NCBI GenBank assembly: GCA_000165345.1
Contig: CM000432.1
Coordinates: forward strand, 928,001 to 992,000
DNA length: 64,000 bases
Reading direction: 5' to 3'
Position numbers and translations under genes: made by a program. Every line of letters begins with the position of its first letter. Within the stretch, counting starts at the first letter, position 1. Positions 20,120 to 58,003 of this stretch are shown in pieces. Below the pieces are notes generated by a model, which saw only the letters and a list, made by a program, of their open reading frames with translations, searched no databases and had not been told where the DNA came from.

Positions 20120-23100
20120 ATGAATAGAAGAATTTTTAAAGAAACAAAGTTATTTTGGATTTTAATTCCAATTATAATATGTATAATATCACTTTCAACG
20201 AATATTTTTGATATTAATTCAATTGAAAAGAATAACAAAATATTTAAACTATGGAATGGAATATTAGAGAATGGAGATAAATTTTTAACAATAAGAAAGC
20301 TGGTAGGATTATCAAGAAATAAAGAATATAATCATAAGAAATATCCAATATTACGCCCAAAATATAATATTAGAGAAAAAAACAAGGTAAAAAATTGGAA
20401 TGACTTAGGGGTAGTATTGCAAAGTAAATGGCCACAAGTACCGTTAGAAGCTTCATTGATAGAATTTCTATCAGAGTTTTACCTAGGAATAGGAAGTACA
20501 TTTGAAGACTTAGTGAGAGATTTAATTAATATAAATAACCACGAAGATGGAAATAAAATTATTACAGCAAGGTTAGCAAGTGAATTGGTTGATAATAATC
20601 TAGGGATCAAATTAATGGAGACTATGGTAATTAATAAATACTATTCTCCTAGAATTGAGTCAATTCGAACATTAGAAAGAAATCAAAGAAGTGTTTTTGG
20701 AATAATATGCAAAAAGGCTAGTTGGTTTATTGTTATATATCAAGAAGAGACTGTTGATACATTTTGTAATTCCAATGATCTTTATAATAGTGTAATAAAA
20801 GGGAGATCTAAAGGATTTGAGAATGTAGAAAAATATGATTTAAGCTTCTCAAAATTTGATTTAGCAAAAGAACATATAATTGAAAATACTTATATCAATA
20901 TAGAAGAAAACAATAAAGTGAAAAAAATTGATATTTACGCATATGTCGATTTTTCAGAAGATAATTCTATAGAAATTTTGAATAACTTATTGAATATTTG
21001 GGATATATTAAAAGATCAAGGTCATGTAAGAATAAAAATTAGACATTGTGATAATGCTGATCTGAATGGTGAGATTGAATATTTATCTGGATTTGGAGTT
21101 TCAGTGAATAAACTATCAGAAAAATCGAATTCAGTAAATAATTCAAGTTCAGCTAAAAATGATATTTTTCAAAATGAGTTTAAATTCTCCCAACATAATC
21201 ATGATGAATTGGAATATTCTCACAAGGATGAAGAGTATAAAAACTTGACCGCAATGTGCGATAAAGCTGTGAATATGGAAAATGTATTAAATTCTGATGG
21301 GGATTTATCTATTGAATGTATGAAAGATATTGGAGCATTTCTAGTATCATTATCCAAAAGATTTGAGGACCAATTAGGTGCAATGGTACATTATTTAGAG
21401 AATTTTGGGACTTATCAAGTAGCATTGTGTAATGGATTAAGAGAAAACACTACTTTATCGGGCTATAATCAATTGCATGATCGTGTTTCAGAAGGATCCA
21501 CATTCTTTACTCTTAATGGAAGATTATTTTCCCCAACCGAAACAAATTTTTTTAATTTGGTTACTTTATTAAAGAGTTTAATTTTCTCAAAAATCAGATT
21601 AATGAAAAATAAGATCGATGATGAAGTTGTTATTATAGATTCTTTATCAATAACCGGAGTAAATGAGAAGGAAGAACTAAATCTATTTATGGAAAGTATT
21701 AATGGCCAATTGAATGATTCAAGAATTAATAACAAGTATAATAATGTAATAAAAGATAAGGGGTTAAAAAACCTAATAGAGAGAGGAGAAGTTCTTGATT
21801 TTGGCTCAATACTTGAATTTGAGAAGGATTTAGAAGAAGATCCAACTTTAATGGACGATACAGATTGGCTTGGGAAAAGAGAATATGTATTATCAAGCTC
21901 ATCTCCATGGCTGAAGAATTCTCCAAGAACTGATTGGAGAGTATCAAATATTCTTCCTTTGAAATCACGTCATTTTTACAAGGATATTACTAATATTGGT
22001 GATTCTCAATGGGGTGTGACTCCTAGTATTTTTGAAAAGGTATGGTTTCATAGAAACATTACTGAAAATAATGAAGATCAAGAGGATATTATTAATGATC
22101 TTGAAGAAAATAACTCCACTGAAGCGAAGATTTTACAAGAAATTGAATATTCACCATGGATAATGTACAGGATATATTTTTCAAATCAGGTTAAAAATTC
22201 GAGATTAATTCAAGATTATCCAATATATGATATTATGAAGGAACCAGAAAATACACTGGGTCAGTATTTATATCCATTAGAGAGTTTGCCAGAATTATTT
22301 GAAAAATATCCTGAAAATGTAGGGATTTATCCAGTCAAGGCTACAATTCTCGAAATAATAATAATGTGTGATCCATTTGATATAGAATGTATTACAGTGA
22401 CCATTGAAATGATTAATAAGAAGTGGCCAATAAAGTTAAACTTGTTATTAATAGACCCAGAATGGGTTAATTCCAGAAAGCCGGATTATTCTAGACCATT
22501 TTCATACAAAAATGTGACTTCAGAAGATGATTTTGAAGCTAAGTTTAGAGATATTTATGAAACTCAGAGAGAAATAGAAATTAATAAGGAAGGAAATCAA
22601 ACATACTGTAATAAAAATTATGGAGAGGAAAATGTTCAGAATTGCCCAAAGTGGATGAATAAGAAAAGAGGATTAAATTCTAGGAGGATATTGGATTACT
22701 ATGAGAAATTTGACAATAATTCAAAAGGAGAATATGCCTTGAAATTGGCAATTTCAGAAGTTTTTGGATTCTTGGTTTCTTCTTCTACAATTCAAGGAAT
22801 GTTTCTTGCAAGAGGTTTTATTGAAATGGTTGCAAAGAATTTACCATTAATATTAGAAGAAGAATTTACTTTAAGTCAGTTTCAAGAGTTTTTGAGTAAA
22901 TTCTTTGCTCATTTTAGTATCAATGCAGAATTAACCAAAGTTTGGGAGATTATTTATTCCAATAATCCAAATGATATATCTTACGTGAATAAGGTGGTAT
23001 CGTATTGTAGACTTAAAGGATTCACAACTCCTGGAGCTTTAGTTAATGGTTACTTTGTGGAAATTACTGATTTAATATTGGAAGAAGTAATCTATGGAAT

Positions 23101-26100
23101 AGCTAAAAAAGAACAGAGAATTATTTTGGAAGGTGTTAAACAAGGTCAAATCACCAGTAGTGATGATATTTATCATTATATATTTAATAATACATTAACT
23201 GGAATTAATTCAGTACCTATTGTTTTTCCACCATTCACAAAGTCGATGAAGTTTGAGAATTGGCCATTTATTGGAATACAAAATGAATGGAAACATATTG
23301 AAAAAGAAATCAATTATAAGCTTCATGAAAAATATGATATTGATAATTTGAAAGAAAATAGTAAGAAAAATGAAAATAATTCAATTTCTTACAAAGAAGA
23401 TAAAAGTGAATATCAAATCACCATTTTGGAAGAAAATGATAATGAGGAAAGGATTTTATTTGATTTTGAAGAATTATCAAGTTTGGAATATTCAACATTA
23501 TGGGATATTAATCCTGAATTAAAGCAAAATATGGAAAGTATTGAAAATAAGAGTCAATCAACTCCATGGATTACATTTATTGTATTAGTAAGATCATCGA
23601 GAACAGGATTATTAGGACTTTTAACTTTGATTGATTATTGGATTTCTACATTATCTTATCAAGCATCTATGCATCTGAATCAGTATAATGAATTATTATA
23701 TAATAGAAGATTCAGATTAATGTTTATTCCACCAAATGAAGTTCAACATAATTCAGATTTCTCACTGATTTTAGAAAAATGTATTGATGATATCTTATAT
23801 TTGAAAAAATATAACAAGGAAGGAAGAAAGATTTCATCTTTTGTTCCAATTTTGGAAAAGTTAAGGTTTATTAAATGGTTTGTCAAAGTAATCTTAGAGA
23901 ATATGGATGATTATATGGATTCTAGTCATTCTAAAATTAAAAGTGAGTTATTTGGAGAAAGAATTATTGAGATTTATGAGTCCCTTTCTTTTAGCTTTTT
24001 TGGAAAGTCTGGAAATGGGAGATTTAACGAAGAGAATTTAGAAGATATTTATTTAATTGAGTCTCAGAATAGAGTCAAAAACAAGTTGGTAAGTAAATTC
24101 TCATCTAGAAAAGAAAAAGAGGTAATATCTTTTCCATATTCTTCAGTGGGAAATGCTAAGTTAAAGGGTTTTCCAAAGTATACAAATTATAATTTAAATA
24201 AAGAAAAGTCTGATCCAAATTATGGAAGAGGAAGTTTCCAAGATACTGAATTATCAAATAAGGATTGTTTTGAAACTTTCACAATGGGAATTGTTATAAA
24301 TGGTGTCTATTTAAGAATTTGTCCAAATACATATCCTGTTTATTTGAGAAATGATATTAAAGTAAATTATTGGTCTTCTCCAATTCATTCTGTACATTTT
24401 AAACTATTGGAAACTGCAGTAACGAATAGAATGAGGCATTTGGTTTTATTTGGAGAGTTTAAGAGGACAGGAAAAAAGGAAGATCTTCTTTATAGAAGAA
24501 AATGGTCAAATATGGATCCAAACCAATTTTTTATGTTATTTAGTGAGCATTTACATGTTTCAAATTTATTCAAATCTGAATCTTTAATACAATTGGACGA
24601 CATTTTTGCTTCTTCAAGTTCACTTATTAAGCTTCATTTACCGACTGTTAATACAGGGAAAAGTTCAAATTTTAAAAATAATGCTTTGATTGGATTAGTG
24701 GCTGTAGTGAATCCCATTACACCTTATAGTACCAATATATTGAGATTATTTGATATTTTACATCAATTATTGGAAGCCGATGTAAAGCTGGTGTATAATC
24801 CTGTGATAAGTTATCAGAATATTAATGAGATTAATTTGATTGATACGTGGAGAAGGTATGTTTTTAATTATCCAAAGCTCAAATCATATAGGAAAGATAC
24901 TCCATATCAAGTAGTGACAAGCTTAAAGGAGCTAATGTATTCCAAAGGAGATCCAAGTGAATTTAAGATAGGTAAAGATGATTTATACTATTATAATTCT
25001 CAATTCATTGCAAAGTTCGATATACAAACAGAAAAGAGACTCAATATTAATATAGAAAAAAGTAATGATTGGAGTATAAGTTACTTAAAAACTATTTTTC
25101 GTCAATCAACAATTAGTAAAGAAAATGATTATTTTATTGTACCTGGTAATATTTCCAATGCAAAAGGAGAGTTATTGGTTTATGAACTTAAAGGTAAAGA
25201 GTTTGAAGCAACATTAATAGATAAATTGTCATCAGAAGTTGGGAATCTCAAGAATAATATAAAAGAAATTCAATTAATATTGCCATCAAGTAATTTCAAA
25301 TTTGAAATTGAATCTAAAAAAGTGTCACCAATACAAAAGATTTATTCAATAACTGATTTTAATAGTTTCTTTGGTTATCTTGGGATTGGAACTAATGATT
25401 TGGTACTAACTTTTGGTAGTGATATTAATAATAATACTACTAAGAAAGAAAATTTATCTATGAGTTTTCCAATTCAAGTATTTAATCAGAGATTATTTGA
25501 AACCAATCAATTTGTTGTACACCTTTCAAAATTATCAAAGATAAATAAAGAAAAAGTAAATTATGTAGAATTTAAAGAAAATTCAAGAAGATTATTTAGA
25601 GAGTTACATATTTTCTGTTTATCAACTCATATATTGAAAAAAGATGTTGAAGGAGATATAATAGATAAATTAATTGATCTAATTGATAAAGGATTTACAG
25701 GAAAAGCTGGAAATTACTATAATAAATTTATTATTTATTTTGATAGTAAAGATATTAGTCAAACAATAAGAGATTATTTCAACTACAAGTTATTTTGGAA
25801 ATATTATATAAATATAGAATATTTGGAAATTACAAGACCAAAATGGATACCTAGATTATCAAGTCAAAATAATAATTCAATGATGGATATTTTATTAACA
25901 TTAGAACATTGGATACCAACAAGAGTTAATAAATTGTTATTATTGGATCCATTTTTGTTGAATAGTAATACTTTTGATTTGGATGATTATTTTGGTCTAG
26001 TAAGTACAAATAAGACAATAAGTAATAATAAGATAAAAATAGGAGATTCAGCAATGACATTTATTAAAAAAAATGATAAAAGTGGATCAATAAGTACAAA

Positions 26101-26326
26101 AATGGGATTAATTTTGGTGAATAATTACAAGAAAATTGGGAGTTATTTAAAAAGAGCTTATTTTGAAATGTATTATGATTTTGAAGTTAGTAAGAAATTA
26201 AGACAAAATGAAGAAAATAATCAAAGTATGATGGATTTATTTATTTCTTATTTGAGAAGTAATAAAGAACTCAAGATTGAAGATGATACATATGAAAAAG
26301 ATCAAAACAAAATCCCAATTACTTAA
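20120..26326 (+). CDS. UDP-glucose:glycoprotein glucosyltransferase (UGGT)-like ER protein, 2068 aa, with divergent C-terminal GT8-like domain
   Basis: ATG confirmed. N-terminal signal/TM (LFWILIPIIICIISLS). N-terminal block EASLIEFLSEFY resembles UGGT EASEFL. IEYLSGFGVSVNKLSEK resembles UGGT VYLSGYGVELAIKSTEY. C-terminal block ITRPKWIPRL...LLTLEHWIPTRVNKLLLLDPFLL resembles the GT8 region YKWPRWL...FLDVLFPLVVDKFLFVDADQIV. The canonical DAD appears replaced by DPF and there is no HDEL-like terminus. These are by-eye alignments. Confidence 0.5.
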   Translation: MNRRIFKETKLFWILIPIIICIISLSTNIFDINSIEKNNKIFKLWNGILENGDKFLTIRKLVGLSRNKEYNHKKYPILRPKYNIREKNKVKNWNDLGVVLQSKWPQVPLEASLIEFLSEFYLGIGSTFEDLVRDLININNHEDGNKIITARLASELVDNNLGIKLMETMVINKYYSPRIESIRTLERNQRSVFGIICKKASWFIVIYQEETVDTFCNSNDLYNSVIKGRSKGFENVEKYDLSFSKFDLAKEHIIENTYINIEENNKVKKIDIYAYVDFSEDNSIEILNNLLNIWDILKDQGHVRIKIRHCDNADLNGEIEYLSGFGVSVNKLSEKSNSVNNSSSAKNDIFQNEFKFSQHNHDELEYSHKDEEYKNLTAMCDKAVNMENVLNSDGDLSIECMKDIGAFLVSLSKRFEDQLGAMVHYLENFGTYQVALCNGLRENTTLSGYNQLHDRVSEGSTFFTLNGRLFSPTETNFFNLVTLLKSLIFSKIRLMKNKIDDEVVIIDSLSITGVNEKEELNLFMESINGQLNDSRINNKYNNVIKDKGLKNLIERGEVLDFGSILEFEKDLEEDPTLMDDTDWLGKREYVLSSSSPWLKNSPRTDWRVSNILPLKSRHFYKDITNIGDSQWGVTPSIFEKVWFHRNITENNEDQEDIINDLEENNSTEAKILQEIEYSPWIMYRIYFSNQVKNSRLIQDYPIYDIMKEPENTLGQYLYPLESLPELFEKYPENVGIYPVKATILEIIIMCDPFDIECITVTIEMINKKWPIKLNLLLIDPEWVNSRKPDYSRPFSYKNVTSEDDFEAKFRDIYETQREIEINKEGNQTYCNKNYGEENVQNCPKWMNKKRGLNSRRILDYYEKFDNNSKGEYALKLAISEVFGFLVSSSTIQGMFLARGFIEMVAKNLPLILEEEFTLSQFQEFLSKFFAHFSINAELTKVWEIIYSNNPNDISYVNKVVSYCRLKGFTTPGALVNGYFVEITDLILEEVIYGIAKKEQRIILEGVKQGQITSSDDIYHYIFNNTLTGINSVPIVFPPFTKSMKFENWPFIGIQNEWKHIEKEINYKLHEKYDIDNLKENSKKNENNSISYKEDKSEYQITILEENDNEERILFDFEELSSLEYSTLWDINPELKQNMESIENKSQSTPWITFIVLVRSSRTGLLGLLTLIDYWISTLSYQASMHLNQYNELLYNRRFRLMFIPPNEVQHNSDFSLILEKCIDDILYLKKYNKEGRKISSFVPILEKLRFIKWFVKVILENMDDYMDSSHSKIKSELFGERIIEIYESLSFSFFGKSGNGRFNEENLEDIYLIESQNRVKNKLVSKFSSRKEKEVISFPYSSVGNAKLKGFPKYTNYNLNKEKSDPNYGRGSFQDTELSNKDCFETFTMGIVINGVYLRICPNTYPVYLRNDIKVNYWSSPIHSVHFKLLETAVTNRMRHLVLFGEFKRTGKKEDLLYRRKWSNMDPNQFFMLFSEHLHVSNLFKSESLIQLDDIFASSSSLIKLHLPTVNTGKSSNFKNNALIGLVAVVNPITPYSTNILRLFDILHQLLEADVKLVYNPVISYQNINEINLIDTWRRYVFNYPKLKSYRKDTPYQVVTSLKELMYSKGDPSEFKIGKDDLYYYNSQFIAKFDIQTEKRLNINIEKSNDWSISYLKTIFRQSTISKENDYFIVPGNISNAKGELLVYELKGKEFEATLIDKLSSEVGNLKNNIKEIQLILPSSNFKFEIESKKVSPIQKIYSITDFNSFFGYLGIGTNDLVLTFGSDINNNTTKKENLSMSFPIQVFNQRLFETNQFVVHLSKLSKINKEKVNYVEFKENSRRLFRELHIFCLSTHILKKDVEGDIIDKLIDLIDKGFTGKAGNYYNKFIIYFDSKDISQTIRDYFNYKLFWKYYINIEYLEITRPKWIPRLSSQNNNSMMDILLTLEHWIPTRVNKLLLLDPFLLNSNTFDLDDYFGLVSTNKTISNNKIKIGDSAMTFIKKNDKSGSISTKMGLILVNNYKKIGSYLKRAYFEMYYDFEVSKKLRQNEENNQSMMDLFISYLRSNKELKIEDDTYEKDQNKIPIT

Positions 26327-33659: not shown

Positions 33660-35800
<2,141 letters not shown>

Positions 35801-36042
35801 TATATTGTGTGAACCATAATGTTACTCATTACTTTATAAAGTAGTGGTGTGAATATGTTATATGATATTATGTGATATTATACATTGGATTGTTTTAGTT
35901 TTTGTAAAAGAGAATGTGGATTTTGGTATCCCTTGCCTGCTTATTCCCGTTATCTGTTTTCCCATCATCCTCTTGTCGTTGAATTTATTTTAAGCCGTAT
36001 TTCTCTACCAACCAATATACCCTGCGGTTACATCTCACATCT

Positions 36043-36142
36043 NNNNNNNNNNNNNNNNNNNNNNNNNNNNNNNNNNNNNNNNNNNNNNNNNNNNNNNNNN
36101 NNNNNNNNNNNNNNNNNNNNNNNNNNNNNNNNNNNNNNNNNN
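36043..36142. other. Assembly gap (100 N) followed by a low-quality stretch with scattered ambiguous bases to about 36410
   Basis: Run of n characters read directly. Isolated n at 36260, 36262, 36325, 36328, 36341, 36365, 36387..36388, 36395, 36403 and 36408. Confidence 0.99.
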
Positions 36143-36427
36143 TATTACTGGTATCAGATAATATAATCCCAGGCGGCTTACATCCTCTACATCATTTACA
36201 GATTTTGTGCTTCTTAGAAGTTGATATGGTTGATTCTACAAATATCACAAGAAATATTTNANCCATTTCATTTGATAAATGATTTAAAGGTATACCAATA
36301 TTTTGAAGATTGTAAACTATATACNTTNCCATATGATTTANCACAGGGATCATCATCAATACTCNTTGATGAATTATATAATATATNNCCATCTNTTCAC
36401 CANAATANTCAGTTAATTGTTTAATGG

Positions 36428-37504
36428 TTAATTTTGTAAATCTTTAATAGATTGTATTTCTGGGAATTTTTCTATTAGACATTTACCTAATTTACCACCT
36501 AAAAATCTTAATTTAAGTATATGAGTATCTTTAATATAAGATTCAAACCATCTATGTAATAATACTGTTTGTCCATTTGGTTTTTTTAATGAAGATATCA
36601 TTTTTGAATAAATCTTATTAATAAAAATACCTGAACTACATGTATAAGTAGTTTCTTCTTGTAATCTTTTTCTTGCTCTATATATAAGTATTGAACCAAA
36701 TATAAGACACATTTCTTGAAAAGTTAAATGATAATAATTTATATTATTATCAATATCTTTTGAATTAAATATATCATAATTTATTATGTTTGACATAATT
36801 TTTTCATCCAATATTTCAGGAAATAAAATTTCAATTATTTTATTAAAATCAAATAAATTATTATTACATGCATTACGTGTCAATAATATATTTGTATTAA
36901 TGGAATTAATACAAATTTCAGATTTTAATTTATCAAAATCAAAATTAGGATGATTATGATTAGATAAATAATTTTTTATAGAATTAAATATTTTTTGAAT
37001 AATATTTGTTAAATCAAAATAAATTTCATCAATTGAAGCAATTTGAGCATTACAAGTTGGTAAGTAACTTTTTAATTTAGTAAAAACCATTTTAGAAGCT
37101 TTTCTAAATATATCCAAAGATAATTTTTGATAAGTCATATTTAAATTATCATCATTAAATAATTCCAAATATTGACCTCTAGCATCTAAAAATACATTTT
37201 GGGGTATAATTATTTCAGGGCATATTGATAATATTTCTTCTTTAGACATTTTTCTATTAACTCCTTTTTCTCTGGATGGATAATTTACTGCTAATACCAC
37301 ATTATTATTTATTACAGCTAATGGTTTATCTCTAGGTATATTATATTCTACATGACATACTTGAGCAAAAAAAGCATCCATATCAATTAATGAAATAATT
37401 CTTGGTACCATTTTTTCATTAAATTTATTAACAAAATCATCAGCAATATCTTTATATGAATAATCTAATTGTTTGGATTTTTTTAATTCATAAAAATTTA
37501 ACAT
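36428..37504 (-). CDS. POLH: DNA polymerase eta (Y-family translesion polymerase), N-terminal about 358 aa; 3' end lost in ambiguous bases and the gap
   Basis: ATG confirmed at 37504. The N-terminal catalytic signature IISLIDMDAFFAQVCHVEYNIPRDKPLAVINNNVVLAVNYPSREKGVNRKM matches Pol eta VALVDMDCFFVQVEQ...KPCAVVQY...AVSYEARAFGV. The ORF ends where the n-containing sequence begins. Confidence 0.7.
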   Translation of the reverse strand: MLNFYELKKSKQLDYSYKDIADDFVNKFNEKMVPRIISLIDMDAFFAQVCHVEYNIPRDKPLAVINNNVVLAVNYPSREKGVNRKMSKEEILSICPEIIIPQNVFLDARGQYLELFNDDNLNMTYQKLSLDIFRKASKMVFTKLKSYLPTCNAQIASIDEIYFDLTNIIQKIFNSIKNYLSNHNHPNFDFDKLKSEICINSINTNILLTRNACNNNLFDFNKIIEILFPEILDEKIMSNIINYDIFNSKDIDNNINYYHLTFQEMCLIFGSILIYRARKRLQEETTYTCSSGIFINKIYSKMISSLKKPNGQTVLLHRWFESYIKDTHILKLRFLGGKLGKCLIEKFPEIQSIKDLQN

Positions 37505-37719
37505 ATTTTTTTCTATTCCAAATTAATTTTGGTAAGAGTGGATTAAAAATTTCAATATTCGCTTTCATAACTTTTAAGGCAAAGTTTATAAATTTGTTTT
37601 TTTTTTTTTTTTTTTTTTTAACAGAAAAAAAAGGTATCGGGTATCTTTTTTTTTTTTTTAAAAATTACAAATTTTTTTTTTTGCGTAAATTTTTTTTTTT
37701 TTTTCAAATAAAAAAAAAA
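37505..37719. promoter_or_regulatory. 215-bp bidirectional promoter between Pol eta (-) and Rrp41 (+), made of long homopolymer T/A tracts flanking GGTATCGGGTATC
   Basis: Tracts of T21, T13, T11, T15 and A11 read directly. The central direct repeat GGTATC-G-GGTATC lies at about 37632..37645. Confidence 0.45.
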
Positions 37720-39699: not shown

Positions 39700-39850
<151 letters not shown>

Positions 39851-40902: not shown

Positions 40903-43900
40903 ATGACACAAGTAATGACTGACTCAGTCTCATTAAATGGTATGGGAAGACTAAGCTCAGTATCAGGCTATGCACTATTACTTGATGATGATTCTGTAGA
41001 GTTAAAAGAATATGCTTTAAGAGAGCTGAATACAGTAGTTGATGGGCATTGGTATGAGATGGCAGAATATTTAGGTTCAATAGAAAGTTGTTTTGAAGAT
41101 GAAATGTTCCCAAATAGAGAACAAGCAGCACTTTTAGCTTCTAAGATATACTTTCATATGGAAGATTATGACGAAGCTTTAAGGTATCTATTAAGTAGTT
41201 ACAGATTATTTGATCCATTAGAAAATAGCTCATTCTCAGAATCAATGGTAGTTAAATGTATTGATGAATTTATTAAAGTATGTAAGACTCATTATAATAA
41301 TATCAATAATAATTCAGATTCTGATACTTATACTGATATAAATATTAATGAACTAGATCCAAGATTAGAAGAAATAGTATCTGATTTAATTTCTAGAAGT
41401 ACTTCCAATGGGAAATTTTTGAATGCAATGGGAATTGTATTAGAAGCAAGAAGAAGTGATTTACTGATAAAAATCTTAAAACAAGTATTAGAAATAATCA
41501 ATATCGAGAATTTGGGTCAATTTTGTGATCAATGTCTAAACTTAATTCGTTACTTAGATTCAAATGATTTTCGTATGAAAAGTTATAAAATACTTATTAA
41601 GTTGATTGAAGATAAAGCTGAGTGTATTGAAGATAGTCCATGCTTAAGAACTTATTGTGAATGTCTTTGTGAAATTAAAGATAGTGAGAAACTTTCTAAT
41701 ATTCTGATAAATCTTGCAAATAATTCAAATAAGAATTTTTCCAAAGCATATTCAATCGCATTTATCATCAAAGATTACGAAAATATTTCTTTATTGAAGG
41801 AAGTAATAAATAAGATTGATCTTTATTTGATTGGTATGATCACAAATTCTTCTAAAGAGGGAGAAGAAGAATGCAAAGATGTGAAAACTGAGAATCAAAA
41901 TCCAAATAATAATGATAATAAACTAGTAAAAGTGAAGAGTATTCTTACAGGAGAAATAGTTTCTGAATTGAATTTACGATTCCTTCATTTAAATAACCAA
42001 CCTGATCTTGGAATATTGGAACACATCAAAAATAACTGTGATCAAAGATCAACAATTTCACATACAGCTCTTGTAATGTCTCATGGTTTAATGCAAGCTG
42101 GCACTACTTGCGATGTATTTCTTAGAAATAACTTAGAATGGCTTGGAAAAGCTACTCATTGGTCAAGATTCTCAACTGCTGCATCATTAGGAGTTATTCA
42201 TATGGGGCATATCAAAGAAGCATTGAAAGTGCTTTCTACTTGCTTGCCAAGTAGTGGAAATACCAACAGTACAAATTCGAATAATAGCGGAAATACTTTA
42301 GGGGGTCAATATAGTGAAGGTGGTTCATTTTTTGCTCTTGGATTAATAAATGCAGGTTACATGGATCAAAAGTCTAGAGAATACCTTTTGGAAAAACTGA
42401 AGAATCCTCAAAGAAATGAAGTTCTTCAACATGGAGCAAGCTTGGGATTAGGATTAATGGGTTTTGGATCATGTGACGCAGAACTATATGATGAATTACG
42501 TAATGTATTATATATGGATAATGCTGTTGCTGGGGAAGCTGCAGCCTATAGTATTGGATTAGTTATGTTTGGATCTGGATGCAAAAAAACAATAGGGGAC
42601 TTACTTTCATATGCAAAAGATACCCAACACGAGAAGATTGTAAGAGCTTGCTCTGTTGCTTTAGGTTTTGTAATGTACTCTCGAGGCGGAGAGGAAGCAG
42701 ATGAGCTTTTTCAACAACTAAACTCTGACAGTGAGCATTTTATTAGATATGGAGCAATGCATGTTCTTGGACTTGCTTACTGTGGAACTGGAAACCAATT
42801 TGCAATGGAGAAGCTACTACAAATAATTGTTTCAGAGCTTTCTGATGATAATAAAAGAGCTGCAGTATTTGCACTAGGTCTGGTTATGTGTAGAAATACT
42901 CAACAAATTCCTCAAGTTTTTTCTTTATTATGCGACAGTTATAACCCACATGTCAGATATGCTGCTGCCCTCACTTTAGGCATTACCTGCTGTGGAATGG
43001 AATCACCCAAAGTCACAGCAATTCTCAAATCCATGACTACTGATTCATCTGATATTGTCAGGCAAGCTGCATATATAGGGCTCGGACTCCTTTTAATGCA
43101 GCAAAACGAATCCTCTAATGACAAACTTTCATGCACACGTCAACAAATGATTAAGGCGGCAACTGATAAGCATGAGCATATAGCCACCAGATTTGGCGCC
43201 ATATTGGGTTTAGGTTTGATGGATTCGGGAGGAAGAAATGTCAAAGCTTCTTTGTTTTCAAGAAATGGAGAGAGTTTACGCCCACAATCAGCGGCAGGTT
43301 TTTCTTTATTTTTCCAGTTTTGGTTTTGGTTTCCTCTGGTACACTGTATTTCTCTATCATATGTCCCAACTTGTATTGTGGGGTTGGATGATCAGTTTAG
43401 GGTACCAAAGAGCTTTAGTATGAAATGTAACTCGTCTAAAGAGAAATTTGATTATCCAAAGTCCTTCTCTCTTGATAAGATTGAAGATAAGAAGGTTGTT
43501 GTCACTGCCGTACTTTCTACTGCTTCTAAGAAGAAATTAAAAAAGCAAAAGGCCACTGGCACCGACACAACAAATGATAATAAAGATAGCAATAGCTCCT
43601 CTTCTCCATTATCTACTTCAAAACAGGTAGTTGAGGAAGAGAAAAGTAGTAATGAAACTGGAAATAATTTGAAAGATGGAGCAGACACCGAGATGAATAT
43701 TGATGAAAAGATAGAAAAAGAAGAGGTTGAGATGACCTTAGATACAGATGATTCAAGAAATAAGAATGATTTTGATAAAGAATCGAGCTCTTTTGTACTA
43801 AACAATCCATTTAGAGTAATAAAACCACAAGAACAATTTTTGGAGTTGATTCCCAACTCTAGGTACTCACCTGTTCTTCCTTTACAAAAGTCTGGATTTA

Positions 43901-44130
43901 TCATACTAAATGATAATACGCCATTGGAACAAGAAGAGTATGTCTTTACTGTTGGACAAGATACCAATAAAGATAATAGTGCTACTTCCGAAGTGAAGAA
44001 TGAAACTACAAAAGAGGAAGAAGAATCCAAAGAAAAGAAGGAAAATAATGAGGATGAGAGAATGTCCGACAATGATAATGGAAAATCGGAAGAAATGGTT
44101 CCCCCTGAAACATTTGAATGGCAGGGATAA
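40903..44130 (+). CDS. RPN2: 26S proteasome regulatory subunit Rpn2 (PSMD1)
   Basis: ATG confirmed. N-terminus LLLDDDSVELKEYALRELNTVVDGHWYEMAEYL matches Rpn2. Multiple PC repeats (HGASLGLGLMGFGS..., AAAYSIGLVMFGSG..., ACSVALGFVMYSRG..., YGAMHVLGLAYCGTGN..., AAVFALGLVMC...). Acidic, K/E-rich C-terminal extension. Confidence 0.9.
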   Translation: MTQVMTDSVSLNGMGRLSSVSGYALLLDDDSVELKEYALRELNTVVDGHWYEMAEYLGSIESCFEDEMFPNREQAALLASKIYFHMEDYDEALRYLLSSYRLFDPLENSSFSESMVVKCIDEFIKVCKTHYNNINNNSDSDTYTDININELDPRLEEIVSDLISRSTSNGKFLNAMGIVLEARRSDLLIKILKQVLEIINIENLGQFCDQCLNLIRYLDSNDFRMKSYKILIKLIEDKAECIEDSPCLRTYCECLCEIKDSEKLSNILINLANNSNKNFSKAYSIAFIIKDYENISLLKEVINKIDLYLIGMITNSSKEGEEECKDVKTENQNPNNNDNKLVKVKSILTGEIVSELNLRFLHLNNQPDLGILEHIKNNCDQRSTISHTALVMSHGLMQAGTTCDVFLRNNLEWLGKATHWSRFSTAASLGVIHMGHIKEALKVLSTCLPSSGNTNSTNSNNSGNTLGGQYSEGGSFFALGLINAGYMDQKSREYLLEKLKNPQRNEVLQHGASLGLGLMGFGSCDAELYDELRNVLYMDNAVAGEAAAYSIGLVMFGSGCKKTIGDLLSYAKDTQHEKIVRACSVALGFVMYSRGGEEADELFQQLNSDSEHFIRYGAMHVLGLAYCGTGNQFAMEKLLQIIVSELSDDNKRAAVFALGLVMCRNTQQIPQVFSLLCDSYNPHVRYAAALTLGITCCGMESPKVTAILKSMTTDSSDIVRQAAYIGLGLLLMQQNESSNDKLSCTRQQMIKAATDKHEHIATRFGAILGLGLMDSGGRNVKASLFSRNGESLRPQSAAGFSLFFQFWFWFPLVHCISLSYVPTCIVGLDDQFRVPKSFSMKCNSSKEKFDYPKSFSLDKIEDKKVVVTAVLSTASKKKLKKQKATGTDTTNDNKDSNSSSSPLSTSKQVVEEEKSSNETGNNLKDGADTEMNIDEKIEKEEVEMTLDTDDSRNKNDFDKESSSFVLNNPFRVIKPQEQFLELIPNSRYSPVLPLQKSGFIILNDNTPLEQEEYVFTVGQDTNKDNSATSEVKNETTKEEEESKEKKENNEDERMSDNDNGKSEEMVPPETFEWQG

Positions 44131-45685: not shown

Positions 45686-48271
45686 TTAAGCTGCAATATA
45701 AAATATTGCAATTGCACCAGCAATTAATAAAAATATTATACCAACAAATGAGAAAATAAATGTTGACTGAAGATACCAAGGCTGAGTGTCTTTATAGGCA
45801 TTAATTGAATTACTTTGAAAACTTCCCATATCATCATCACTTTCTCTCATACCTTGATTTATCATTCTCTGGCCATTCTGTAATTGACCAGGATTTGGCG
45901 CCATAGGGAACATTGGTATACCATATTGTGGTTTCTGGCCTGACATATTATTATTTGCATGCGATAAATATTGGCCTTGCATGTGGGAGTTTACGCGCCC
46001 ATTTTGTAATTGGTTTGCATTTATATACTTGGGTTTATGAATAATATCTTTATATATATATTTAACATTTCTCTTATTATTGTTTTGTTTAGATTTTTTA
46101 TGAACACGAATTAACTTAATATAATCATCATTATCATCGTCATCACTACTATCGTCACTATCATCATTATTGTCATCATTATCGCTTTCCTCTATTTCAG
46201 ATTCTTCGCCTTTAGGGTTAGATACCTTTGATTTCTTTTTTGTAATAATATCAGATTCTAGTATATTATTTGAAGCTTTTCTTGGAGTTCTATTCTTAAT
46301 GAAAATAGGAATTATCCTTTTTCGTGGAGTTTTTCTCTTAACATTTGGTCCATATCTTAATGATGGATCTTTAATTAATAAGAAAGGTTCATTTCTTCTT
46401 AATTTTGTATTGTTTGAAATGATGTTTGCTGCATTAGTTTGATGTGAAGAAGTTCGTTTAGGTTTTGCTTTTGTTAATGCTTGTAATATAATTGTTTTTG
46501 GTTGTGGCTTAGGTACTGTTTGCGCTTTAATTGGTCTTGTCTTTCTTACAGGTACTGTATATAGCATGAGGGTGTTTGGTTGTGTTACAGGTTGAACCAT
46601 AGTTTGTCTTGGCTGTGGTACAGGTACAGTTATAGGTTGAACCATAGTTTGTCTTGGTTGTGGCACAGGTACAGGTACGGGTACAGGTTGAGCCATAATT
46701 TGTCTTTGCTGTGGTATAGGCATAGGCATAGGCATAGGCATAGGCATAGGTACAGGTACAGGTTGAACCATAGCTGGTTTTGGTTGTGGTACTGGTACAG
46801 CTTGAGTCATAACTGGTTTTGGTTTTGGTTTAGGCTGTGTTATAGGTACTGTTTGTATTAAAATTGTTTTTGGTTGTTGTTTAGGTGCTGTTTGAGTTAC
46901 TATTTGTTTCGGTTTAGGTTTAGGTTTTGGCTGTGTTATAGGTACTGTTTGTAATATAACTGTTTTTGGTTGTGACTTAGGCACTGATTTTATAACATTT
47001 TGTTTTGGTTTTAGTTTCGGTTTCGGCTTTGGTTGTGTTATAGGTACTGTTTGTATTAAAATTGTTTTTGGTTGTTGTTTAGGTGCTGTTTGAGTTACTG
47101 TTTGTTTCGGTTTTGGTTTTGGTTTTGGTTTTGTTATAGGTACTGTTTGTATTAAAATTGTTTTTGGTTGTTGTTTAGGTGCTGTTTGAGTTACTATTTG
47201 TTTTGGTTTTGGTTTAGGTTTTGGCTGTGTTATAGGTACTGTTTGTAATATAACTGTTTTTGGTTGTGACTTAGGCATTGATTTTATAACATTTTGATTT
47301 TGAATTTGATTTGTAGAAAGTGATCTTTGATTAACAAAACCAACATTATTAATAGCAATCCCACCAGATTGTTGAATATTATTCATTTTCATTGTTGGTT
47401 TTGGATGAATTACATTCTGATTTGCAGAAAATGCTGAATTTGTACCAAAAGGTAAATTGTAGATATCAGGTTGAGATATCCCAGTACCTCCAGGATAATA
47501 AAAAGTAGGTAAGTTGTCTTTATTATTAACATTTGTTTTAGTATTAGAATAATTATTTAATCCAGTCTTTGGTTCATTTAAATTATTAAATATCAATTTT
47601 GGACCATTATTAACCATTTTTTGATTAGAATTATTTATTGACATATTCTTTTTCTCTTGATTTAAATTATTATTCTTTTTTATATCAAAATCGTCATCAT
47701 CATCATCATCTTCTTCTTCTTCACTTTCTCTACTGGAATAATCAAATTCTTTTATTTTCTTCATTTTATCTTTAATAACTTTATCTGCTGTTGCTGAATC
47801 TACTTCAGAATCATTACTATTTTCATCACGGCCAAAAGTAGGTCCTAAACTTTGAGATAAAAATCCTAGTTTATTGGCTGAATCTTCTGATACAGATGAA
47901 TCATCTTTTTCAAAATTCTCTCCACCAAAACTACCACTAGTACTTTTTTCTGAATCATCAAAATTTTCTGATTCAGTTAATGTGCTCTTTATTGATCCAT
48001 CCATCGTTGATAACTCTTTATTTTTATCACCAAATCCATTTCCTGATTCAACTTTTGCTTTTCCTATTGTATTTTTTAACAATTCCAATCCAAGTTCAAG
48101 ACTTTCTGAGCCTTCACTTTTATTTTTTTCAAATTCTGAATCACATTTTACTAATTTTATACCGATTCCAAAATTATCTCCATTAATAAATGATAAATCC
48201 AAACTCAATATCAGGAAATACAATGATAGTACCAATATTAATAGTGATTTACCTATTTTCCCAACCCTCAT
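45686..48271 (-). CDS. Secreted/type-I membrane, repeat-rich Pro/Lys/Thr/Gln mucin-like surface glycoprotein, 861 aa
   Basis: N-terminal signal peptide (LLILVLSLYFLILSLDLSF). Central tandem repeats of about 30 and 62 aa (KTILIQTVPITQPKPKPKPKQIVTQTAPKQQP, repeated several times), (PM)6 and (PV)n runs. Acidic blocks EEEDDDDDDDFD and DNDDNNDDSDDSSDDDDNDD. C-terminal TM FIFSFVGIIFLLIAGAIAIFYIAA. Confidence 0.7.
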   Translation of the reverse strand: MRVGKIGKSLLILVLSLYFLILSLDLSFINGDNFGIGIKLVKCDSEFEKNKSEGSESLELGLELLKNTIGKAKVESGNGFGDKNKELSTMDGSIKSTLTESENFDDSEKSTSGSFGGENFEKDDSSVSEDSANKLGFLSQSLGPTFGRDENSNDSEVDSATADKVIKDKMKKIKEFDYSSRESEEEEDDDDDDDFDIKKNNNLNQEKKNMSINNSNQKMVNNGPKLIFNNLNEPKTGLNNYSNTKTNVNNKDNLPTFYYPGGTGISQPDIYNLPFGTNSAFSANQNVIHPKPTMKMNNIQQSGGIAINNVGFVNQRSLSTNQIQNQNVIKSMPKSQPKTVILQTVPITQPKPKPKPKQIVTQTAPKQQPKTILIQTVPITKPKPKPKPKQTVTQTAPKQQPKTILIQTVPITQPKPKPKLKPKQNVIKSVPKSQPKTVILQTVPITQPKPKPKPKQIVTQTAPKQQPKTILIQTVPITQPKPKPKPVMTQAVPVPQPKPAMVQPVPVPMPMPMPMPMPIPQQRQIMAQPVPVPVPVPQPRQTMVQPITVPVPQPRQTMVQPVTQPNTLMLYTVPVRKTRPIKAQTVPKPQPKTIILQALTKAKPKRTSSHQTNAANIISNNTKLRRNEPFLLIKDPSLRYGPNVKRKTPRKRIIPIFIKNRTPRKASNNILESDIITKKKSKVSNPKGEESEIEESDNDDNNDDSDDSSDDDDNDDYIKLIRVHKKSKQNNNKRNVKYIYKDIIHKPKYINANQLQNGRVNSHMQGQYLSHANNNMSGQKPQYGIPMFPMAPNPGQLQNGQRMINQGMRESDDDMGSFQSNSINAYKDTQPWYLQSTFIFSFVGIIFLLIAGAIAIFYIAA
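46560..47290 (-). repeat. In-frame coding tandem repeats (about 96-nt and 186-nt units) of the mucin-like gene, including a (GGCATA)6 hexanucleotide run at about 46716..46752
   Basis: Near-identical nucleotide blocks (ggttgtgttataggtactgtttgtattaaaattgtttttggttgttgtttaggtgctgtttgagttact...) recur several times. ggcataggcataggcata... encodes PMPMPMPMPMP on the minus strand. Confidence 0.75.
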
Positions 48272-54554: not shown

Positions 54555-54852
54555 TAAAGTTCAAGCCATTGCTTTCTTTAGTTAGTTTTATTCTTAGATT
54601 TTTCTTGGTAAAGGTTTCTATATTTTACAAGTATTTTACTTAATTTTGAATTTTTGCATTTTATGTAAACTTCTTTCTTTTACTAAAAATATGTCAGAGA
54701 ATTCATATTAATATAACAATAGATAAACTTGCTGAACTTTATTTTAAGCCATTTATATCCATTTTTTTAATTCACTCGCTCTAGCATAATTTTCCCTGCA
54801 TGCACCTTATAATATTAAAATTTTTATTTTAGTTAAAAATGACGTGGAGGGG

Positions 54853-54867
54853 GATTTGGCGGCAAAA
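54853..54867. promoter_or_regulatory. E2F-type site GATTTGGCGGCAAAA just upstream of the Vps-like gene; GCATGC at about 54797
   Basis: Read directly. Lies inside the ORF-track extension 54844..54945, which starts with GTG, so the extension is probably 5'UTR or promoter. Confidence 0.4.
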
Positions 54868-54945
54868 AATGTGCATATTAAATTGTGGGAAGAAGTTAAG
54901 GAAATTAATTCAGTAATATTAGTAAAAGAAATTTTTCAGAGCTCT

Positions 54946-57900
54946 ATGGAGAGTTTTAGATACTTCCCTTTTTTTGAAAAGAAAGTTGTTGAAGGGGAAA
55001 ACTATTTTAGTTCAACTCTTGATTTTGAAAAGTTAGGACTAGGTTCATTTATTACATGCTCAGGAAACGAGAATTCTCTCTGGTTTGGCACAGGAGATGG
55101 TTATATCTACGAGGTTGGGCTTCGGGATGGACTCCTGAGTATAATTGAGAGCTGGAAGGCATATGATATAACAGTTTTTGACATTAAGTATTCCCAAAAT
55201 ACCCTAATAACTATTGGAATGGACGAAAATAATATGTGGAAATTAAAGCTATATGATTGTTTGGATGGCAACATTTTAAGTTCACGACTTGAAAATTATC
55301 AGGAGGTTCCAATATATAAAGAATTAGGTGAAAGAGGAATCACTGTATTTGAAACATGTTCTGATAATCAATTTGTTGGTTTAGGAACTGTTGATGATTT
55401 TGGAGTATTCATATTATATGGAGATTTTTTTGGTGTTGATACATATTCAAGCCATTTTATTGAATTATCTGAACCATGTACAGGAATTCATTTTATATCT
55501 TCTAATACAAAAGAAGAATATTACATTATGATTTCTACAAAAAATTCTATAATTTCTTATGAAATTGGAGTTAATACAAAATTCCCAAAGCTTATTTACA
55601 GTGATACAATGGGAGGTGCAAGACTTAATTGTAGCTCAATACTAAATTCATGGACTGATGATATCTCACAAGTACGTGATGTCTTAGTAGTATTTAGAGA
55701 AGAAGGCTTGTTTTGTTATCATCCAGTTAATGGTAACTGTTCTGCTCTTCCAACTAATCATGGAAATCCTATCATACTCTCAACTTTCAAGAATTATCTG
55801 GTCTTAGTTAGTTCTCCTCTTAACATCTCATCAGAATATTATTCAAATAATTCCAGAGAACAAATTGAAACTGTTAATACAACATTATGTGATGTTACTA
55901 TATGTAATTACCTCCCAGAATTAAGATGTATATGTTATACTGGTGAATTTAAAAATGTTTCACATATTGTTAAAGGACTTAATATGTTATTTGTCCTCTG
56001 TTCTGGAAATAATGTACTTTCAGGTTCTACTTCTATTACTAACACAAATATGATTAATAAGTTTGATCATACAATTTTAGAAAGAAAACAAGGAATTCAA
56101 AGTAATATTCTTTTACCTAATTCTTCTTCTAATACTAATCATACTGGTAATACTAATAATAGTACTAATAATTCATATATTACTCATACAAATATTACTA
56201 TGCCAAATCTATTATTTCACTTGGAGGAACTTAACCTATTTGAAAGAATTCAAATCTTAATCAGTAAAAACCTTTATGATTGGGCTCTAATCTTAGCTAA
56301 GAATGGAAATGTCTCCAATTCTATATATTCTCAGATCCAAAGAGCATATGGTGATTGGCTTTGTAATATTAGAAAAGATTATTCGGGAGCTTTAAACAGT
56401 TATCTTAATTGTCTAGATAGCTTTTCTGGAGATACCAGTCATGTAATACATAATTTTCTACAAGCTAATAGATTTGATGAAGCAATCACATATTTAAAGG
56501 AATGTGTATTAATTTTTAGAAGAAAAGAATCTACTAAGAATGCTATTAATCTTACAAATAGTGAAGATTCCAGATTTCCTATTGCAAAAGATCATATAAC
56601 ATTACTTTACAGATTATTTGCACAATTGGATAGATTAGAAGATATTATGGATTTTCTTCAAAATAGGAATTTAAACGAAGAAATTGATAATTATGAAGTA
56701 GAAACAGCGATTGATATGTGTAGAAATTATAATAAATTTGAAATGGCTGGAAATATTGCAGAAAGATTTCAATTTCATGATAAATACATGCAAATTCAAT
56801 TGGAAGATAGAAGATCTCCATCTGAAGCATTAGAGTATTTGGAAGATATTAATTTGGATGAGCCACAAAAACTATCATTAATATTAAAATATGGACCAAT
56901 TTTGATTAATAAGATTCAAAAACAAACAACTAAATTTATTAAAAATTTGGTAATAGAAAATAATATGCCAATTGATGTATTTTTACCAATATTTGTAAAT
57001 CATGATCATTTACTATTAGAAATGGCTTGGGATGTATTAAATAATGAAGGGAAGAAATTACAAATAGAATTAGAAGATATTGAAAAGATATCAGTAGAAT
57101 TATGTATTCATATACTTCAAGTATCTTTAAGACAAGAACCAAAATCTGAGATATGGGGCTAAATTAATATTAGAAAGATTAATAAGAATAGATAATTCAG
57201 AGAATTGGCATTCAATTTTGTGTATTTGTATATATTATAGATATATTTCAGGTGTATTTTATATTTCACAACATTGTAATTTACATCAATTTGCAATTAC
57301 TGAGTTAATAAAAAAAGGTGAAATTAAAGATCTGATAGAATTCTGTAGTTTATTTGGTAATAAGGACCCATTTATATGGCAAGAATCATTATGTTTGGTT
57401 ATAAAGAAATTATCAGAGAATACAAATATGAAAGAAAATATTGAATTAATAGAATATCTTAAGGCGATTTTAGAAAACGTTCATTCACTAAAATTAATAT
57501 CTCCATTATCAATTTTGGAGATTTTGTCAAAGTATTTGGTAAATGATAATATTTCATCAGATGAAAGATTTAATTCATTAACTTTTGAGATAATTAAACC
57601 AATATTAGCATTATACTCTGATTATAATAATGAGAATCTTTCAGAAAATAATAGGAATTCATTAAACGATATAAATGAGATTAATAGGATGAAGAAAGAA
57701 ATCAAAGACTTGAAGATGATGCCTAAAATATTAAATACTTCAAGATGTAACCAATGTCATTTACCTTTGGAATTACCAATAATTCATTTCTTATGTGATC
57801 ATTCATTTCATAGATATTGTTTATTACAACAAGATCAGTGTCCAATATGTTCTTCTGATCAAAAAACAAAGATCAGACTTTTAAAACAGAGAGAAAATCA

Positions 57901-58003
57901 ACAGATCAATAAAGATCAATTTTTTAAGTTTATTAAGGGAGATACGGATAATTCACTAGGTTTTGATCATATTTCAAAATCACTAAGTGTTTTATTCAAA
58001 TAG
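54946..58003 (+). CDS. Class C Vps (HOPS/CORVET, Vps11/Vps18-like) protein: N-terminal beta-propeller, alpha-solenoid, C-terminal RING-H2; reading frame interrupted by a +1 shift near 57150
   Basis: First in-frame ATG 54946. RING-H2 at the C-terminus CNQCHLPLELPIIHFLCDHSFHRYCLLQQDQCPICS. The two ORF-track pieces (..57162, frame 1; 57218.., frame 2, which starts on TTG) overlap: frame 2 is open from 57131 (DKNQNLRYGAKLILERLIRIDNSENWHSILCI...). A G4 run lies at 57155..57158. No GT..AG intron restores the frame. Confidence 0.6.

Follow-up and report, generated by a model that had tools for sequence, protein, structure and literature searches.

The proteins of Cryptosporidium that come closest to the one described here are gp900 (cgd7_4020), gp40/15, Gp20 and CpMuc, i.e., secretory, low-complexity, repeat-containing proteins of invasive stages that are held by a membrane or glycosylphosphatidylinositol (GPI) anchor and carry length-polymorphic repeats used for typing (gp60). 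According to a Cryptosporidium parvum glycopeptide study (PMC5549699), the mucin-like glycoproteins of this genus have a Ser/Thr-rich domain with dense O-linked N-acetylgalactosamine (O-GalNAc) on consecutive Ser (Gp40) or Thr (Gp20). We analyzed a stretch of 64,000 nucleotides of C. parvum chromosome 4 (GenBank assembly GCA_000165345.1, contig CM000432.1, positions 928,001 to 992,000), in the following called the window, and focus on its gene cgd4_3970. The cgd4_3970 protein shares with gp900, gp40/15, Gp20 and CpMuc the secretory, anchored design, and its repeats are likewise length-variable. However, it has no sequence homology to them, and its repeats are devoid of the runs of consecutive Ser or Thr that bear the dense O-GalNAc in these glycoproteins. 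With moderate confidence, we propose that cgd4_3970 encodes a protein of invasive stages that is extended, polycationic and tethered to a membrane and acts as a spacer or adhesive, a function that we infer from the features of its sequence.

A second comparison, drawn from general knowledge, is with Pro-rich spacers, i.e., the (Glu-Pro)n/(Lys-Pro)n rod of TonB, the PEVK region of titin and the Pro-rich wall-spanning regions of Gram-positive bacteria. Like cgd4_3970 (PKPKPKPK, PVPVPVPV, PMPMPM), they contain X-Pro runs, are high in Pro, Lys and Val with no globular fold predicted, and are positioned between an anchor, in membrane or wall, and a distal region. Homology to these spacers is not detectable, and the likeness is an analogy of working mode, not family membership. 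Moreover, cgd4_3970 differs from them in that its linkers alternate with hydrophobic heptads (TILIQTV) and in its large net positive charge.

We identified the gene as cgd4_3970 because the neighboring RPN2 gene (40903-44130) is cgd4_3950, as given in a 2025 secretome paper, the DinB-type polymerase gene (36428-37504) is cgd4_3920, and the published quantitative reverse-transcription PCR (qRT-PCR) primers for cgd4_3970 map inside it, with perfect matches at window positions 46531-46557 and 46428-46452. In two assemblies, the gene lies on the fourth chromosome record, at ~128 kb from one of the ends. Its protein is 100% identical to the deposited EAK87441.1, QOY42297.1 (CPATCC_001929), WKS77598.1 and WRK31727.1, in line with the Cryptosporidium origin implied in a preliminary description of the window. 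The depositors of EAK87441.1 listed a signal peptide, a transmembrane (TM) domain or GPI anchor, a proline-rich composition and acidic stretches, and the NCBI annotators named the protein 'signal peptide-containing'. The gene, together with the descriptors used in this preliminary description, which was made from the sequence alone, has been in GenBank since the Iowa II annotation. Whereas the deposited records are identical in sequence to the window gene, they contain neither a function nor a description of the repeats as a variable-number tandem repeat (VNTR). Orthologues are annotated in C. hominis, chipmunk genotype I, C. canis, C. felis and C. ryanae; the records are silent on the positional orthologues in C. 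bovis, C. ubiquitum and C. andersoni. The preliminary description did not recognize a named antigen, and indeed no main text in the open-access literature names cgd4_3970. The present analysis adds the rejection of a mucin label, an architecture of charge blocks with a PWYxQS motif, orthologues out to C. andersoni and concrete VNTR differences. The gene and its parts are placed in the window as follows, in the direction of transcription:

45686..48271, minus strand: complete intronless coding sequence (CDS) of cgd4_3970, 861 amino acids (aa) plus stop, taken from the list of open reading frames (ORFs), with ATG start.
48179..48271, minus strand: signal-peptide-like N-terminus, aa 1-31, from a Kyte-Doolittle scan and an AlphaFold2 (AF2) helix at aa 5-23, conserved in all orthologues.
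47297..48178, minus strand: N-terminal acidic low-complexity region, aa 32-325, from composition, conservation and AF2.
46454..47296, minus strand: basic Pro/Lys/Gln/Val/Ile repeat region, aa 326-606, from composition and repeat parsing.
46814..47311, minus strand: higher-order coding minisatellite with nested periods of 96/198/294 nt and copies 87-94% identical, from Tandem Repeats Finder (TRF) and a gap-free repeat search.
46715..46750, minus strand: perfect microsatellite with a hexanucleotide unit that encodes (PM)n and reads CCTATG on the coding strand, found by TRF at 46716-46750 as (ATAGGC)5.8 with 100% match.
46584..46720, minus strand: array with a period of 45 nt, QPRQTMVQP(V/I)xVPVP units including (PV)n, from TRF and the gap-free repeat search.
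45782..46453, minus strand: C-terminal non-repeat region, aa 607-830, with conserved motifs and an acidic block.
45689..45781, minus strand: PWYxQS motif and 26-residue hydrophobic segment ending the protein, from the hydropathy scan, an AF2 helix and invariance.

Hydrophobic segments were found at only two places in a Kyte-Doolittle scan of the whole protein, aa 3-31 and aa 832-861. The scan thus agrees with the secretory architecture given in the preliminary description, i.e., a signal-like N-terminal segment and a hydrophobic C-terminal anchor. The N-terminus (aa 1-31) is composed of a basic n-region (MRVGKIGK), a hydrophobic core of 15 aa and a polar c-region with the small residues S23 and G31. 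Its basic n-region and hydrophobic core are conserved across species, as expected for entry into the secretory pathway, and the annotators call it a signal peptide.

Between these two ends, charge is distributed in blocks. Net charge is about -18 across aa 31-255 and about +50 in the middle block (aa 256-624), which holds the repeats. The N-terminal acidic region contains short conserved motifs (STLTESE, FEKDDS, GFLSQSLGP, LPTFYYPGG and MKMNNI) and a poly-Glu/Asp block at 47684-47731. The repeat region is composed of 23.5% P, 14.9% Q, 14.6% K and 11.7% T. Further conserved motifs were found in the C-terminal region (LRRNEPFLLIxDPSLRYGPNVKR, YIKLIRV, VKYIxKDIxxKPKYI, YGIPMFP and NSIN), together with an acidic Asp/Ser/Asn block at 46124-46222. 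The acidic blocks that had been reported to flank the repeats are present, as ESEEEEDDDDDDD at aa 182-194 and EESDNDDNNDDSDDSSDDDDNDD at aa 694-716.

AF2 modeling from an alignment of six sequences gave a mean predicted local distance difference test (pLDDT) score of 32.8 and no usable fold. Helices were modeled only at the signal peptide, at aa 57-68, at aa 159-174 and in the C-terminal segment (aa 832-860, pLDDT ~66-68); apart from the two short helices, the N-terminal acidic region stayed at pLDDT <50. The ectodomain, modeled with low confidence, is probably intrinsically disordered. A Pfam scan of the protein assigned no family, as Cwf15, TBCA and TFIIF-alpha scored far below the gathering scores and were compositional matches. 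A sequence search of the PDB found no relative either. Its best matches, tau (E=0.039) and HMGB1 (E=0.55), were both compositional; in the case of tau, this is because tau likewise is a basic, Pro-rich repeat protein.

The polycationic middle is encoded by nested tandem repeats. Residues 326-606 comprise ~18 sub-units of 13-19 aa each, in which a short hydrophobic stretch (TVILQTV, QIVTQTA or QTMVQPV) is followed by a Pro-rich linker ((PK)3-4, (PV)n or (PM)5); the encoded motifs are TVPITQPKPKPKPKQIVTQTAPKQQPK-type units. A check of the region with TRF, as had been suggested, returned nested arrays at 46584-47267. The period-96 array at 46814-47267 (4.7 copies, 83% matches, score 649) was also scored as period 198 (2.3 copies, score 658), and the gap-free repeat finder located 203-nt copies at 46815-47017, 47013-47215 (87%) and 47109-47311 (94%). 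From the positions of these copies, the higher-order unit is therefore 294 nt, i.e., 98 aa. The repeats had been called near-perfect in the preliminary description. This holds for the hexanucleotide run (100%) but overstates the larger units, whose copies are merely 87-94% identical. The (GGCATA)6 run described as encoding (PM)n was recovered by TRF as a perfect run of ~6 copies and gives (PM)5 at aa 508-517, and the (PV)n motif was found as (PV)4 at aa 529-536. No other coding array in the 64-kb window reached a TRF score of at least 150. Plus-strand ORFs within the repeats (e.g., 46580-46861), with translations rich in RY and RH dipeptides, were discarded as mirror products of the repeat, not genes.

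We conclude that the repeats are genuine and did not arise in assembly, since two other C. parvum assemblies contain the CDS without a single base difference and the 861-aa protein is deposited under four accessions. At the same time, its length differs within species. In the C. parvum assembly GCA_048859185.1, the gene differs from that of the window by four substitutions and by exactly one CCTATG unit fewer at ~46750. C. hominis has an 856-aa allele, encoded in five assemblies including the capillary-sequenced TU502, for which short-read repeat collapse is possible, though the same protein is found in all five. Compared with it, a 926-aa C. hominis allele carries in-frame insertions that measure 96, 51 and 63 nt and lie within the repeats; the first falls in the 96/198/294-nt minisatellite and the other two in the 45-nt array. 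In C. canis, alleles of 931 and 950 aa occur. All indels between alleles are in frame. cgd4_3970 hence carries a VNTR, i.e., head-to-tail, in-frame repeats with copy-number differences within one species, and the coding minisatellites predicted to be length-polymorphic are so between isolates and species in this comparison of assemblies.

Coding repeats are already in use for typing C. parvum. A seven-locus scheme of MLVA, the multilocus analysis of variable-number tandem repeats, includes cgd4_2350_796 and MSF, which is cgd5_10_310 (PMC9043402). Its loci resemble cgd4_3970 in being coding tandem repeats with unit-number differences and in the similar size of a 6-nt unit, but cgd4_3970 is not among the seven. 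Identity of the window repeat with the MLVA locus cgd4_2350_796 was rejected, as the primer for that locus does not match anywhere in the window. As a typing marker, cgd4_3970 is not named in any open-access paper. With a 6-nt microsatellite that differs between C. parvum assemblies and units of 45-96 nt that differ between C. hominis assemblies, it is a candidate for an extra multilocus typing marker. A second length-variable locus nearby is an intergenic (ATA)n microsatellite with a 14-nt period at 39713-39845 (TRF score ~200), which exceeds its counterpart in a newer C. parvum assembly by 40 nt.

Between C. parvum and C. hominis, nucleotide divergence is 9.5% in the repeats compared with 3.8% in the N-terminal and 2.0% in the C-terminal part. 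Divergence typical of the two genomes is ~3-5%. The flanks thus evolve at about the genome-typical rate and only the repeats are fast, to which the earlier description of a rapidly evolving gene applies. Overall, the protein diverges faster than that of its neighbor RPN2. Identity to C. parvum is 88% for cgd4_3970 and 98% for RPN2 in C. hominis, 61% and 85% in chipmunk genotype I, and 50% and 72% in C. canis, respectively.

To find relatives, a profile built on six orthologues was run against a set of 1.84 billion representative proteins. Only Cryptosporidium yielded relatives that show the whole architecture, i.e., in C. canis, as fragments in C. felis and as a 955-aa protein in C. ryanae. 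Profile matches outside the genus were rejected as compositional: they align to the repeat region alone, and those inspected were unrelated low-complexity proteins. One of the unrelated proteins, a 630-aa metagenome sequence from the European Nucleotide Archive (ENA), has 13-aa repeats (ISKPEPKPIEVKx) in which a short hydrophobic stretch alternates with a KPEPKP linker, and its N-terminal ~180 residues resemble a small GTPase by reading of the sequence. We take its repeats as a putative convergent compositional analogue of those in cgd4_3970.

Orthologues and syntenic genes in other Cryptosporidium species, which the preliminary description had proposed to look for, were found with RPN2 orthologues as anchors. 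The order RPN2, small ORF, cgd4_3970 orthologue, VPS51-like gene is kept in C. ryanae, C. bovis, C. ubiquitum and, as the furthest, C. andersoni. The positional orthologue has 994 aa in C. bovis; that of the gastric species C. andersoni has 618 aa and is very divergent. In the C. ubiquitum orthologue, Ns stand in place of the repeat (positions 13415-13514 of the locus examined), and the C. felis gene is split over two contigs (KAF7455750, KAF7456572). The repeats hence break the short-read assemblies of both species at the repeat position, and orthologue lengths from such assemblies are unreliable. From the relatives of whole architecture and the kept gene order we therefore conclude that cgd4_3970 is a genus-wide, single-copy gene.

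The charge blocks are common to these orthologues. In all seven species, the N-terminal block has a net charge of -16 to -35 and the middle block one of +38 to +66, the latter with 11-21% P, 12-15% K, 21-30% V+I+L and 7-15% Ser+Thr. All seven proteins end in PWYxQS followed by a hydrophobic C-terminus, and P831, W832, Y833, Q835 and S836 are invariant, including in C. andersoni. The repeat units, in contrast, are specific to the species, i.e., QPKQITLQAVAKP in C. canis, VTPPPAQKILVAKVAEPKPQPQVLLKANKIA in C. ryanae and QKVLVGKVVEPKPQ in C. bovis. This divergence fits concerted evolution within species, with selection that would act on composition and pattern, not on the exact sequence.

The hydrophobic run at aa 836-861 ends the C. 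parvum protein without a cytoplasmic tail, as in a GPI signal. Orthologue tails add at most 2-4 residues (SR, AQN, VQQ), and only C. andersoni ends in Arg. Such a tail-less hydrophobic C-terminus would fit the classical form of a GPI signal, and C. parvum has a GPI pathway and transamidase (PMC9713705). By manual reading, the candidate omega site is S820-N-S822, with a spacer of 13 aa compared with the usual ~8-12 aa; comparable Ser/Asn/Asp triplets occur in the orthologues. With omega at this site, however, the invariant PWYxQS would fall in the part that is cleaved off. On the other hand, the helix modeled at aa 832-860 has the length wanted for a type I TM helix (at least 20 aa), but the cytoplasmic tail that would follow, usually basic at the membrane border, is absent in C. 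parvum. Conservation is highest in the tail region (aa 819-861), at 77-98% identity. We dropped this as proof of a retained TM helix: in C. canis, the signal peptide is 73% identical compared with 41% for the ectodomain, i.e., a segment that is cleaved is also far better conserved than the ectodomain, so that tail conservation cannot decide between TM helix and GPI signal. On the sequence features, the two appear about equally probable, which is the same ambiguity that the original annotators recorded.

cgd4_3970 mRNA is sporozoite-biased. RNA-seq gave log2 counts per million (CPM) of 9.56, 9.53 and 9.38 in sporozoites, compared with 7.84, 7.50 and 7.61 at 24 h and 8.04, 7.91 and 7.96 at 48 h (Tandel 2019, PMC6877471). 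The gene is listed in both the 'SporoVSinvivo-Sporo' and the 'SporoVSinvitro-Sporo' sheets of this study, which we interpret as genes of the sporozoite that do not overlap with the sets upregulated in females in vivo and in vitro. In 18S-normalised qRT-PCR, the transcript was highest at 2 h (~1-3e-6), ranged from ~1e-7 to 3e-6 at 6-48 h and was lowest at 72 h (4e-8 to 2e-7) (Mauzy 2012, PMC3305300, Table S1). Moreover, the protein is made, as mass spectrometry of cells infected for 3 h identified two unique peptides in a DG8 pull-down, with four peptide-spectrum matches (PSMs), a log2 fold change of 2.24 and p=0.037 (PMC13241007, S1 Table).

Taken together, we favor a membrane-tethered spacer or adhesive protein with the following mode of action. 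The N-terminal signal sequence would take the protein into the secretory pathway, and PWYxQS with the hydrophobic segment would keep it on a membrane, be it that the segment stays as a TM helix without a tail or that it is exchanged for GPI. The chain between the ends is predicted to be unstructured and arranged in charge blocks, i.e., an acidic N-terminal block, a polycationic middle and an acidic Asp/Ser/Asn patch. In the middle, short beta-branched hydrophobic stretches alternate with Pro-Lys or Pro-Val linkers. X-Pro runs favor extended, polyproline-II-like conformations, as in TonB and PEVK, and the middle would hence be an extended spacer. This Pro-rich basic region might act as a flexible extended spacer and/or as a multivalent electrostatic adhesive for polyanions, for which the candidate ligands are mucus of the host, glycosaminoglycans and acidic glycoproteins made by the parasite itself; the acidic blocks may shield or regulate it. 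The site of action would be the surface or a secretory compartment of invasive stages, where plasma membrane, secretory organelle or host interface are all possible. The repeat variation itself is observed. The nested in-frame repeats of 6/45/96/198/294 nt gain and lose units, presumably by replication slippage or unequal recombination, which gives rise to alleles of different length in each of C. parvum, C. hominis and C. canis. Between species the repeat sequences differ, whereas composition and charge are conserved. The spacer or adhesive protein would not be a dense O-glycan scaffold, i.e., not a mucin.

Several points weigh against this proposal. The polyanion-binding or spacer role is derived from composition alone and should be understood as putative. 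Only six sequences stand behind the AF2 model, and its low confidence is thus no proof of disorder. The authors of the qRT-PCR study caution that a peak at 2 h may reflect carried-over sporozoite mRNA or normalisation (PMC3305300). Enrichment with DG8 is common to actin, EF2 and ribosomal proteins, and the pull-down is therefore uninformative on specific partners. Finally, the isolated threonines of the repeats could still bear O-GalNAc, as isolated Ser/Thr do on Gp15 and Gp900 (PMC5549699).

A different residence of the protein is possible but unlikely. The cgd4_3970 protein would then sit in the membrane of a secretory compartment inside the parasite (microneme, dense or small granule, rhoptry, endoplasmic reticulum (ER) or Golgi) or, after discharge, in that of the parasitophorous vacuole or host interface, and would not belong to a constitutive surface coat. 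A signal sequence and a single membrane segment suit any secretory compartment, and many disordered, repeat-rich Cryptosporidium proteins are cargo of secretory organelles (PMC13241007). Also, the pull-down in which the protein was enriched at 3 h after infection is enriched for dense- and small-granule proteins. However, the four PSMs fall far below the authors' threshold of 30 PSMs (PMC13241007), and cytosolic background was co-enriched. With no cytoplasmic tail, there is moreover no sorting motif to assess. This explanation overlaps with the spacer or adhesive protein and differs from it solely in where the protein resides.

We regard it as improbable that cgd4_3970 encodes a mucin-like, heavily O-glycosylated surface antigen or adhesin of sporozoites, whose Thr repeats would be a glycan scaffold as in gp900, gp40/15 and CpMuc. 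The signal sequence, the membrane anchor and the enrichment of its mRNA in sporozoites would suit such a protein, and 33 of the 37 Ser/Thr in the repeat region are Thr. Yet Ser+Thr amount to 13.2% of the repeat region, a share that the remainder of the protein equals or exceeds and that is hence no enrichment. There are no adjacent Ser/Thr pairs in the repeats, and the longest Ser/Thr run anywhere in the protein has three residues; a Ser/Thr-rich domain with consecutive Ser/Thr, by which a mucin is recognized, was thus not found. GalNAc-transferases favor Pro at positions -1, +1 and +3, whereas no Ser/Thr of the repeats has Pro at any of these, and the threonines stand in T-x-P contexts. Nor is Thr kept in the orthologues: its share of the corresponding region is 5-8% in chipmunk genotype I, C. 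canis, C. ryanae, C. bovis and C. andersoni, and the C. ryanae unit has one Thr in 32 aa. Judged from these compositions, a mucin scaffold does not appear to be a conserved property of cgd4_3970, and the labels 'mucin-like' and 'Thr-rich' of the preliminary description are not supported. C. parvum has five candidate polypeptide GalNAc-transferases (PMC9713705) and carries O-GalNAc also on isolated Ser/Thr of Gp15 and Gp900 (PMC5549699). However, cgd4_3970 is not in four supplementary files of this study of C. parvum peptides with O-linked N-acetylhexosamine (O-HexNAc), which as one data set is weak evidence.

A structural part of the oocyst wall or of sporozoite-wall tethers, with cross-linked Gln/Lys-rich repeats, is highly improbable: the composition is rich in Gln and Lys and the transcript is present in sporozoites excysted from oocysts, but expression is lowest at 72 h without a rise at 48-72 h, when wall genes are expressed, the gene was seen only in the '-Sporo' sheets, read as not shared with females in a female comparison that is incomplete in the differential-expression data (PMC6877471), and with a single Cys and no Pfam domain the protein is not COWP-like, as COWPs have arrays of Cys-rich type I/II domains and female expression.

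The neighbors of cgd4_3970 in the window (GC ~26%) are all housekeeping genes, i.e., CCT subunits, RabGAP, SNARE, RNase PH, RPN2, VPS51-like, VPS11, ribosomal protein S5 and GNL3, and the gene therefore lies outside any antigen cluster. Two TCP-1/CCT chaperonin genes of exactly 557 aa each are arranged head to head (14785-16458, minus strand, and 17775-19448, plus strand). A recent duplication was rejected for this pair, as they are different CCT subunits with 29% identity. At 20120-26326 on the plus strand, a 2068-aa ORF without Pfam match encodes a large uncharacterised protein and has a strong positive GC skew of 0.23-0.27.

Some irregularities of the window are seen in comparison with newer C. 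parvum assemblies. A 100-N assembly gap at 36043-36142 lies within a segment (35686-36430) that also has scattered single Ns and a stretch aligning poorly to the newer assembly, as is typically seen where contigs were joined at low quality in an older assembly. The gap is in or adjoins the 3' part of the DinB/Rev1-like polymerase gene cgd4_3920, whose ORF has 358 aa in the window compared with 649-661 aa in newer assemblies (with gene models cut at the locus end). An 85-nt T-rich segment at 37605-37689 is missing from the newer assembly; it lies either immediately upstream of the RNase PH gene or within its 5' end. In VPS11 (54844-58003), one extra G at 57155 splits the gene into ORFs of 772 and 261 aa, compared with continuous 1018 aa in newer assemblies; it is probably a sequencing error in the source assembly of the window.

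cgd4_3970 is ordinary for Cryptosporidium, which encodes many low-complexity, repeat-bearing secreted proteins, and it leaves the current understanding unchallenged. As an uncharacterised, genus-wide conserved and sporozoite-enriched secretory protein, it is a reasonable candidate for tagging or knockout. Speculatively, and with low confidence, the gene might stand for a Cryptosporidium-specific class of membrane-tethered, charge-block disordered proteins, in which an acidic head is combined with a polycationic stalk of Pro/Lys and beta-prone heptads and with the invariant PWYxQS juxtamembrane motif. Such proteins might serve as multivalent electrostatic adhesins, or as spacers that separate the sporozoite membrane from polyanionic host mucus or glycocalyx or from the nascent host-parasite interface. 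If this is true, repeat number would tune their reach or avidity and would vary under host or immune selection.

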